Shown: positions 914-4,282, counted from the stretch's first letter. The stretch: DNA of 4,443 bases from a virus (IMGVR_UViG_2713896778_000022); one strand, 5' to 3'. Translations and numbers: made by a program. The notes: generated by a model from the sequence alone, not told the origin.

Positions 914-1444
914 ATGATATATCCGGAAATTACAGGCAAAAGCGGCGAACATTTACGCCTGAACACGCTGGAAGCAGTCTGGATCCAGGGGAAATTACGG
1001 ATGTGGGGGCGGTGGTCGTATATCGGTGGGGGTAAATCCGGAAATATGTTTAACCGGTTACTGGTTTCGAAAAAGCTGACGAAAACAGCAGTTAATGAGG
1101 TTTTACGCAGCATGAAGAAATCCGGGCTGGAAAAACCGGAACTTGAGGCATTTTTTCGGGATATGACCAGAGGGAAGCAGAAGAGCTGGTTGTCACATTG
1201 TACAGACACAGAGGCGTTGATTATTGATCGCGTTATCAGTGAGGTGCTTGGGGAATATCCCGGGCTAATCAATATTCTCCGGCAAAGGTACGAAGGACGG
1301 GGAATGAGTAAGAGAAAAATGGCAGAATGTTTAAATCGTACTCACCCGGAATGGTGTTTCAGCACATGTGAGAAACGTATTGCAGGTTGGTTAGCCGTGG
1401 CTGAACACATGCTTTATGTACCTATGCACGATTCATTTCGATAA
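914..1444 (+). CDS. phage late-gene antitermination protein Q (QuuD/phage-82-like family)
   Basis: The ORF runs 902..1444, beginning with a GTG that overlaps the rusA stop (GTGA); the first ATG is at 914. The N-terminal motif LEAVWIQGKLRMWGRWSYIGGG resembles the ..ERWGAWA.. motif I recall in QuuD-type Q proteins. It lies directly after rusA and directly before an intrinsic terminator, as expected for Q. The exact start (902 versus 914) is uncertain. Confidence 0.65.
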   Translation: MIYPEITGKSGEHLRLNTLEAVWIQGKLRMWGRWSYIGGGKSGNMFNRLLVSKKLTKTAVNEVLRSMKKSGLEKPELEAFFRDMTRGKQKSWLSHCTDTEALIIDRVISEVLGEYPGLINILRQRYEGRGMSKRKMAECLNRTHPEWCFSTCEKRIAGWLAVAEHMLYVPMHDSFR

Positions 1445-1540
1445 AAAAAGCTTGCTTTTTTACGCAGAAACAGCTTGAATTCCTGTAAGCTTCGCAAAGC
1501 TGTATCGCGAGGCGAAATGCAAGTTTTTTCGCACAAGGAA
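1445..1540 (+). promoter_or_regulatory. candidate late promoter (PR') and Q-utilisation region
   Basis: Position only: a non-coding stretch between the Q stop and an intrinsic terminator, where lambdoid phages place PR'/qut. Hexamers such as TTGCTT (1452..1457) and TTGAAT (1475..1480) are present, but I could not pair any with a convincing -10, so the promoter is not located precisely. Confidence 0.3.
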
Positions 1541-1562
1541 GCCACCGGAAGGTGGTTTTTTT
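1541..1562 (+). terminator. Rho-independent terminator (candidate tR')
   Basis: GCCACC-GGAA-GGTGG hairpin (5-6 bp GC-rich stem, GGAA loop) immediately followed by seven T (1556..1562). Confidence 0.6.
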
Positions 1563-3061: not shown

Positions 3062-3172
3062 AGATATGGTCAGTTCAGGCTGTGAAGCAAGTAGACAGAT
3101 AAGGCTGCAATAAAAACTGACAATAGTAAAATAGCTTTTTCCCAGGTAGTCATGAATACGATCTCTTAAAGC

Positions 3173-3192
3173 GCCCGCTGATACCAGCGGGC
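3173..3192. other. perfect GC-rich hairpin (8-bp stem, 4-nt loop) without a clean U-tract
   Basis: GCCCGCTG-ATAC-CAGCGGGC. On the + strand it is followed by AATACATA; on the - strand by GCTTTAAGAG. It lies about 110 nt downstream of the methyltransferase stop. It could be a weak terminator for either strand or an RNA stability or processing element. Confidence 0.3.
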
Positions 3193-4282
3193 AATACATA
3201 CTGGCATTAATGTTAAGTTCAGGGATAATTCATCGTATTTTGTGGTACGACGCTATCAATATTAATAAACAGTATTTTTCATGTAAAATTTCTGTTTTTT
3301 TTGATCTGATTCTCGTTTCCTGGGTTATGATGTTGTTGTGAACCATGCTGTTGAATGATAATGTTCGGGTATAAAATTGTTGCTGATATGTAGCGCAGTG
3401 AGCGGGTGGTATTTCTGTTGCTGAGTGTACGGATACAGTGCTTCCCTCCCTCAGCGGGGGGGCAGGTGTGCTGTGGTTTTAGAGACACCGGAAACGAGAA
3501 TGATGCGGGTTTGCTGGTGCCGGGATAGAGTCGCCGGAGGTCATGACATAGAGCAAAAAAGGAATGTGCATGCAAATACACACCTCTTCGGAGAGCTCTT
3601 CTTTATATGGATGAGCCTCAAGGTCAATAGTTTATCTGTTATGTATTCATATGTTGTTACTTATATAATCCATACGGGCATATCATCAGTACACACATAC
3701 TATTATGGCATTTTATTTTTGTTTTAACTGAATTCCCGGGGCACTCTTTTTGATTTCTGATAAGGAACCAGAATTTTCTGTTAAATGGTGTCACGTTGTA
3801 AATGGTTAATGGAAGCAGCTTATTATCCATAATCACACCTGAGTTAACAGGTGTGAGAATACTTCCGGGTGGCAGGAACACATCTGACTGATACCAGATT
3901 ATCAACTTTATTTTACACCATACAGTTGAAAACGTTATTCCGCTTGATGGGCATATCACTGTGTCAATAACTATCCATTCCATCTTTTAACCTTCTCGGT
4001 ACACATTGCTTTCGATTGTTTTGCTAAAAATCATAGTCAATAAATCAGTGTAACTCATTGATAAAGATCGTTTTCTTTGTCTTCCTGGGGGTTTCTTTTC
4101 TAATTTTGTATCACTTTGGTTCAAGTTGTTTCATTTTTTGTAATACAAATTAGCAGGATGAGCGGGAATATAAAAAAATCGGATGTTTTTGTAATGGATA
4201 TTATTTTTTGTAAAATAATGTATTTTTATTTAAATCTCTATCAGAAAAGAATTTATTGTTCCTTTATATGGTGGAAAAGGTC

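Follow-up and report, generated by a model that had tools for sequence, protein, structure and literature searches.

A predicted phage 21-type late-gene control cassette downstream of the DUF1133 gene of an Escherichia coli lambdoid prophage

What is encoded in the short interval between the stop codon of a putative late antiterminator gene and the terminator that follows it in an E. coli prophage? The question is raised by a stretch of viral DNA of 4,443 nucleotides (IMGVR_UViG_2713896778_000022; hereafter the window), in which the interval of about 118 nt between the stop of a DUF1133 'Q' gene and an intrinsic terminator occupies positions 1445-1562. A first-pass annotation had described it as a leader with mutually exclusive hairpins ahead of the terminator, located where lambdoid phages keep PR', the Q-binding and pause elements and tR'.

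The window belongs to an E. coli lambdoid prophage. A 411-base query across the interval matched O121 strain RM8352 at 100% identity and several O157:H7 genomes at about 99%; matches were present in 2417 of 5426 complete E. coli genomes, in 750 over at least 80% of the query. The genes of the window are arranged in the order DUF968, RusA, DUF1133 (914-1444), the interval, a small ORF, a DNA methyltransferase, iraM on the other strand and the start of a DUF1737/DUF6645 gene. The parent genome has holin and lysozyme genes about 5.5 kb downstream, on the strand that carries Q; the small ORF, the methylase, antisense iraM and a DUF6645 pseudogene lie between the terminator and these lysis genes. 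Given this gene order and the downstream holin and lysozyme genes, the interval sits at the position of a lambdoid late promoter. The features considered in the following, with window coordinates, are:

914-1444, plus strand: gene of the DUF1133 protein, a Q21-related putative late antiterminator ('Q'), assigned by Pfam, profile comparison and fold; the same CDS is present in RefSeq.
1443-1449, plus strand: A-tract directly 5' of the -35 hexamer, read from the sequence and identical with the 5' arm of an AT palindrome.
1452-1457, plus strand: TTGCTT, -35 hexamer of the predicted late promoter; its TTG is invariant in 43 of 43 distinct relatives.
1458-1473, plus strand: spacer and, by position, candidate Q-binding element, composed of TTTTACGC (1458-1465) and AGAAACAG (1466-1473).
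1475-1480, plus strand: hexamer 1, TTGAAT, the predicted -10; all relatives have TTnAAT/TTAACT here, at a fixed 17 bp from TTG.
1486-1492, plus strand: hexamer 2, TAAGCT(T), predicted sigma-dependent pause element (SDPE); the hexamer equals that of the annotated phage 21 SDPE, TAAGCTG.
1496-1501, plus strand: AAAGCT, a second -10-like hexamer 10 nt after the first, read from the sequence.
1486-1516, plus strand: conserved start of the predicted transcript, TAAGCTTCGCAAAGCTGTATCGCGAGGCGAA, defined by identity among relatives up to a mosaic junction at about 1516.
1517-1540, plus strand: variable U-rich linker, which holds the 3' arm of the second proposed hairpin and is replaced by unrelated sequence in other relatives.
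1541-1562, plus strand: intrinsic terminator (tR'-like), GCCACC-GGAA-GGTGG plus T7, recognized by its hairpin fold and T run.

Some observations concern the surroundings of the interval. Two masked runs of 50 N lie at 742-791, within the RusA gene, and at 1794-1843, within the small ORF after the terminator. The AT-rich 1.2 kb at 3062-4282 carry no plus-strand gene and gave no Rfam match and no tRNA; iraM, which encodes an anti-adapter protecting RpoS, is found in this part at 3657-3983 on the minus strand, that is inside the expected late operon and convergent to late transcription. A tRNA scan of the entire window was negative. From about 1585 on, beginning with the small 'TrmB-like' ORF (about 1585-1790), the window is 88-96% identical to many Stx2 phages and to phiP27, which possess other Q/PR' modules and thereby point to a second mosaic junction just past the terminator.

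The protein encoded by 914-1444 matched Pfam DUF1133 at 1e-110 and, in addition, PF06530 (Phage_antitermQ) at 35.2 bits, above the cut-off of 26. Q21 itself, the antiterminator of phage 21, matched PF06530 at 8.8e-25 and DUF1133 near threshold. When a profile of DUF1133 homologues was compared with Q21 by hhalign, the two aligned over 135 columns with a probability of 86% and an E value of 5e-6. A Foldseek search of the PDB with the predicted structure returned Q21 for all of the best 12 matches (E about 1e-3, TM 0.5-0.67), and the next match had an E value above 1; the predicted structure has low confidence (pLDDT 59.6) and serves as supporting evidence only. The two proteins thus have a fold and a Pfam family, PF06530, in common, whereas identity is as low as about 17-24%, the DUF1133 protein has an insertion of roughly 30 residues and it is filed under another family name. 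We regard it as a diverged Q21-family protein and a putative antiterminator.

The organization of the late promoter of phage 21 has been described in detail (Yin et al. 2019, bioRxiv 10.1101/651190; Shi et al. 2019, PMC6606751). In the phage 21 record OL657228, Q is followed by the -35 element TTGACA, the Q-binding element (QBE) with the 8-bp subsites ATTGAGCA and AATGAGCA in the spacer, the -10 element AACACT, the start site and the SDPE TAAGCTG, and the terminator ends about 50 nt after the start. The paused polymerase is held at two places, by Q on the spacer and by sigma region 2 on the -10-like element (bioRxiv 10.1101/651190; PMC6606751). The comparison with phage 21, which had been proposed in the first-pass annotation, revealed the same succession of predicted elements in the window: Q stop, -35, candidate Q-binding spacer, -10, start, -10-like pause element and a terminator within tens of nucleotides. 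The pause hexamer TAAGCT and its distance from the upstream subsite are identical in both phages. Unlike in phage 21, the -35 and -10 hexamers of the window are moved 2 bp towards the pause element, and the -10 reads TTGAAT instead of AACACT. Due to this 2-bp shift, the predicted start, A1487, falls inside the pause hexamer. Further differences are the terminated RNA, which comprises about 50 nt in phage 21 and a predicted 76 nt or so in the window, the conserved transcribed block of 22-30 nt, which has no counterpart in phage 21, and the genes after the terminator, morons (the small ORF and the DNA methylase) in the window and tRNAs in phage 21.

To evaluate conservation, we assembled 109 loci that carry DUF1133 homologues (45-100% identity), drawn from IMG/VR and from the genomes of many enterobacterial genera; besides E. 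coli, the homologues occurred in Salmonella, Citrobacter, Klebsiella, Enterobacter, Pantoea and other genera. Their distinct upstream regions, 43 in number, shared the gap-free layout TTG-N3-N14-(TGn)-TTnAAT-N5-TAnnCT, and the 17 bp between TTG and hexamer 1 were constant in all of them. When IMG/VR was searched with the transcribed block alone, 122 matches were obtained, and TTG occupied the -35 slot in 121 of the 121 that could be scored.

As a promoter, TTGCTT-17 bp-TTGAAT is weak, with 3/6 and 4/6 consensus matches (7/12 in total) and no TG; AGC stands in the window where most relatives have TGn, an extended -10, immediately 5' of hexamer 1. The predicted -10 has T and not A at position 2, and a consensus scan of 1300-2100 reported no promoter for this very reason. 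There is a precedent for T at position 2 in the -10 of the trp promoter, TTAACT, and some relatives carry exactly TTAACT as predicted -10. The constant geometry suggests that the two hexamers act as a promoter. The A-run at 1443-1449 is moderately conserved at its position in class-1 relatives, even where it is coding, and resembles the UP-element consensus AAAAAARNR, so that it is possibly a proximal UP-element-like sequence. The AT palindrome that had been noted here, AAAAAAGC/GCTTTTTT at 1444-1451 and 1454-1461, is present in the sequence, but as a secondary structure it is no better than chance: an inverted repeat of at least 8 bp arose in 5.6% of shuffles, which is frequent because of the A and T runs. 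It is better read as the -35 hexamer with its flanking, UP-element-like A-tract. As a separate observation, the core AGCT is repeated four times within 55 nt (1449-1502), as AAGCTT (1448-1453), CAGCTT (1471-1476), AAGCTT (1487-1492) and AAGCTG (1497-1502), each copy at or beside the -35, the -10, the pause element or the second -10-like element.

The spacer 1458-1473 occupies positions -28 to -13 relative to the first T of the pause element, the register of the phage 21 subsites QBEu and QBEd. In an alignment anchored on hexamer 2, the third base of the upstream subsite was T in every relative, and this invariant T is 26 bp away from the pause element, as in phage 21. Two relatives have exact phage 21 QBE 8-mers in the upstream slot with the register kept, ATTGAGCA in L104 and AATGAGCA in L103. 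The subsites of the window itself match those of phage 21 at 3/8 (TTTTACGC) and 2/8 (AGAAACAG) positions and form no direct repeat, and because of this we infer Q binding to 1458-1473 from its position.

Hexamer 2 starts with T in 42 of the 43 relatives and has A2 and T6 in all 43, while positions 3-4 are variable, a pattern that is the signature of a sigma-70 -10-like element. TAAGCT (1486-1491) would be the pause element, and the predicted start at about A1487, 7 nt after hexamer 1, places the pause element at -1 to +5, which is 2-3 nt more upstream than in lambda or phage 21. Among 22 distinct class-1 relatives, AAAGCT (1496-1501) never varies at its G, C and T and hardly at its As; this hexamer is possibly a second pause element. 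Together, they belong to a block that is more conserved than its neighbourhood: identity over 1486-1507 was 82-95% in relatives whose Q genes were only 57-66% (DNA) and whose spacers were 54-61% identical. The block is combined with two types of Q-binding-like spacers (those of L090, L096 and L109 versus that of the E. coli group). The simplest reading of the conservation of the first 22 transcribed bases beyond that of the Q gene is a pause module, which would consist of the pause hexamer, AAAGCT 10 nt later and the hybrid and downstream contacts of the paused complex. The sequence of the block was contained in no paper found by a literature search. In the adjoining linker, the T-run is 6 to 8 long among close relatives. 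A small ORF from an ATG at 1518 to 1609 (30 codons, GAGG 5 nt before the ATG), which crosses the terminator, was rejected as a gene: many close relatives have ACG in place of the ATG, and the module is swappable. Its position is reminiscent of orf-64 across tR' in lambda.

The cassette is closely linked to Q. A DUF1133 gene was found upstream on the same strand in 117 of the 122 matches to the block; the other five comprised four with too little upstream sequence and one Q remnant. However, linkage is not to the stop codon as such. In 16 IMG/VR matches, and in two of the genome loci, L087 and L091, the cassette is displaced by 860-1470 nt from Q, in L087 by an inserted isrK/C4-antisense/antirepressor module. 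Therefore, the cassette stays with the late genes rather than with the stop codon of Q. In class-2 relatives (e.g. L089, L098 and L107), the coding sequence of Q even extends over the -35 and the spacer and has its stop codon within hexamer 1. These have a different conserved block at about +3 to +28 with a well supported 5' hairpin, GCUCGG...CUGAGC with an inner CGU/GCG stem and z-scores of -2.4 to -4.4; one-sided and possibly compensatory changes in this hairpin were seen in L098 and L107.

The sequences that follow Q are diverse among the relatives (L072 2397-2547, L082 2392-2542, L083 2789-2975, L092 2239-2430, L089 2555-2955 and L091 2199-2347). The terminator is followed by pairs of tRNA genes, an arrangement shared with phage 21 and Stx phages, or else by the sRNA STnc100 or a cspA thermoregulator. 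L091 has the sok antitoxin RNA in the stretch that separates Q from its displaced cassette. In the Shigella/Salmonella loci L086 (2075-2276) and L087 (2075-2268), isrK comes right after the stop of the DUF1133 Q gene and is followed by a1b1 targets with the C4 antisense RNA (P1/P7 immI type) and by an antirepressor gene. One viral contig, L188, contains two copies of the cassette 3.8 kb apart (733-750 and 4542-4559), identical in block, terminator and following sequence and different in the upstream spacers.

The terminator proposed in the first-pass annotation, GCCACC-GGAA-GGTGG-T7, proved to be real. With flanking A/U pairs the hairpin has -12.4 kcal/mol and is followed by T7; it also drives the z-score of -2.5 for the fold of 1487-1562. 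A scan tool listed the stem (1542-1555) on the minus strand only, while T7 plainly follows on the plus strand. In nearly all of 53 unique relatives, an intrinsic terminator follows the predicted start at a distance of about 62-83 nt; for five of them, the finder chose a stronger, more distal hairpin at +101 to +152. These terminators have at least six unrelated stem sequences. Such conservation of position without sequence is good evidence that termination at that point matters. From the positions of start and terminator, a terminated RNA of about 76 nt is predicted, in agreement with the very short transcript that had been anticipated.

Altogether, the interval is most probably a late-gene control cassette of the phage 21 type that serves the DUF1133 putative antiterminator: its elements, their geometry, their conservation and the linkage to Q are observed, and its activity is predicted from these. 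The earlier proposal of a PR'/Q-binding/pause/tR' interval is supported by homology to the annotated PR' of phage 21 and by conservation across many relatives; the promoter and the pause element had not been placed in it. Host sigma-70 polymerase would start from TTGCTT (1452-1457) and TTGAAT (1475-1480) at about A1487. Sigma region 2 would then re-bind TAAGCT (1486-1491) and the polymerase would pause some 15 nt downstream. In the absence of Q, it would resume, stop at 1541-1562 and free the RNA of about 76 nt. Once Q has accumulated, it would bind the spacer 1458-1473 and load on the paused polymerase, which would ignore this and later terminators; after the expected read-through at 1541-1562, the Q-modified polymerase would transcribe the downstream morons and the lysis genes.

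Other explanations of the interval were weighed against this scheme. The first-pass annotation had suggested that two hairpins sharing the arm GCGAA form alternately, and an attenuator or riboswitch-like leader in which they control the terminator would follow from it. All of its strings are in place, and both hairpins can be drawn with the shared arm, TTCGC (1491-1495) with GCGAA (1512-1516) and GCGAAA (1512-1517) with TTTCGC (1527-1532). Perfect stems of at least 5 bp numbered 13 in the region versus 6.1 +/- 4.2 in shuffles, a count reached by 7.5% of these. The leader without the terminator (1487-1536) had no excess of stability over shuffles (z -0.19, 82 of 200 shuffles at least as stable), and its minimum-energy fold uses another register, GCUUCGC (1489-1495) with GCGAGGC (1507-1513). 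Compensatory changes were absent from three candidate helices in 22 distinct relatives, where 13-20% of the cells were unpaired. The second hairpin has its 3' arm past the mosaic junction at about 1516, where relatives carry interchangeable modules, and most terminator modules lack this arm; of 74 folded leaders, only 15 pair GCGAAA with anything downstream. As the terminator stem is overlapped by neither hairpin, the two cannot work as an attenuator switch, and the leader matches no Rfam family. The mutually exclusive hairpins are thus not upheld, lacking thermodynamic excess, covariation, conservation across terminator modules and overlap with the terminator, and we regard an alternating leader as extremely improbable. 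A different, long-range pairing was likewise discarded. AAAAAGCTTGC (1445-1455) is complementary to GCAAGTTTTTT (1519-1529) over 11 positions with one G-U and is paired in the fold of the whole of 1445-1562; the upstream arm is absent in relatives with an 88%-identical Q.

The hairpin and T7 might instead simply end the early-right (Q) operon, without any promoter in the interval and with the conserved block as a 3'-UTR element of the Q mRNA. The proximity of the terminator to Q (97 nt past the stop codon) and the negative consensus scan would fit, but this is very improbable in view of the -35/-10/pause geometry, conserved and homologous to PR' of phage 21, the displaced copies, in which block and terminator stand just before the late genes, and the overlap of promoter elements with the Q coding sequence in class 2. 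A variant of the preferred cassette, with TAAGCT (1486-1491) as the -10 of the promoter, the start near A1498 and the pause at AAAGCT or further downstream, is also improbable, if less strictly so. It has in its favour that TAnnCT contains the A2 and T6 of a true -10, which hexamer 1 does not, and that many relatives have TGn directly 5' of hexamer 2 (all of class 2, and TTGCTATGCT in some of class 1). However, no -35-like element is located 16-18 bp upstream of hexamer 2, it is hexamer 1 and not hexamer 2 from which the invariant TTG is 17 bp away, and in phage 21 TAAGCT is the experimentally based SDPE just past the start site, with the register of the QBE to this hexamer preserved.

Whether the RNA of about 76 nt is also a trans-acting sRNA of the Hfq type, with the conserved 22-30 nt of its 5' end as a functional domain (seed or 5' stem-loop), is a related issue, and we consider such a role doubtful. 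Conservation of the first 22 nt above that of the Q gene, and their joining to more than one QBE-like spacer type, are consistent with it, as is the common predicted fold, a 5' stem-loop from +3, an A/U-rich single-stranded linker and a U-tailed terminator. StxS (PMC7547250) and the 6S RNA of lambda are precedents; lysogens contain the latter, and Hfq RIL-seq recovered it in chimeras with target RNAs (bioRxiv 10.1101/2024.10.31.621285). For StxS, the first-pass remark on early-terminated PR' transcripts of Stx phages as regulatory sRNAs holds true (PMC7547250). On the other hand, the 5' hairpin reaches significance neither in the window (z -1.24) nor in divergent class-1 members, the conservation from -1 to +21 can be explained entirely by the pause module, and an Rfam sRNA family match is lacking. 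Searches of the whole window with E up to 1 placed no family on the leader, those of 1430-1600 with E up to 10 gave sub-threshold matches only, and 19 relatives had nothing on the leader. It is a tentative suggestion, with rather low odds, that the first 22-30 nt are the functional 5' domain of a widespread, constitutive family of PR'-derived sRNAs, produced by DUF1133-Q prophages across Enterobacteriaceae, that would act in trans in the lysogen in the manner of StxS. The 5' region of the transcript has several matching places, up to 8, per E. coli genome.

Several known RNAs were examined as identities or precedents of the leader and set aside. STnc50 scored 17.7 bits versus a gathering score of 55 and was treated as a chance match. 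HnrS (EcOnc10-12), a multicopy prophage sRNA of 66 nt, is found elsewhere in the prophage, on the opposite strand of Sp12 in the stretch from the endopeptidase to the terminase gene, and EcOnc33 is antisense to the 3' end of a sialate esterase gene in Sp6. The list of orphan Hfq sites (EcOnc) of EHEC Sakai by definition has no peaks less than 100 nt from a genomic feature (PMC7547250). IsrK/IsrJ was dismissed as well: isrK and C4 match the inserted module only (L086 and L087), and nothing was found at the block of L087. PreS (LPR1) of lambda is no precedent for a PR' transcript, as it derives from tL2a (bioRxiv 10.1101/2024.10.31.621285).

Compared with other systems, the cassette would resemble PR'-6S RNA-tR' of lambda in a constitutive late promoter right after Q, a -10-like pause at the transcript start where Q is loaded, and a short terminated RNA made in lysogens. 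It differs in that Q of lambda belongs to another protein family, the lambda RNA has 194 nt and there is no sequence similarity. StxS of Stx1/Stx2a phages is likewise a short tR'-terminated RNA of a lambdoid prophage in pathogenic E. coli (PMC7547250). Unlike the predicted RNA of the window, StxS arises from a 258-nt precursor, which RNase E trims to 74 nt, and it has a demonstrated function (PMC7547250). The IsrK/C4-antisense/antirepressor module of Gifsy-type Salmonella prophages (RF01394, RF01695) also adjoins DUF1133 Q genes, in L086 and L087, but there it is an insert between Q and the cassette and it is absent from the window.

The cassette would thus be an ordinary kind of element that serves an uncharacterised but widespread branch of the Q21 family. 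Annotations list DUF1133 proteins under unknown function, yet they are widespread in E. coli genomes. The proposed assignment would extend the Q21 system to a diverged branch in which the distance from Q binding to pause was kept while the promoter hexamers slid by 2 bp. A further outcome is a candidate prophage RNA, constitutive and about 76 nt long, whose 5' end is unusually conserved. Since many such prophages reside in Shiga-toxin-producing strains, the predicted promoter, pause and terminator positions provide a concrete and testable map of their late switch.
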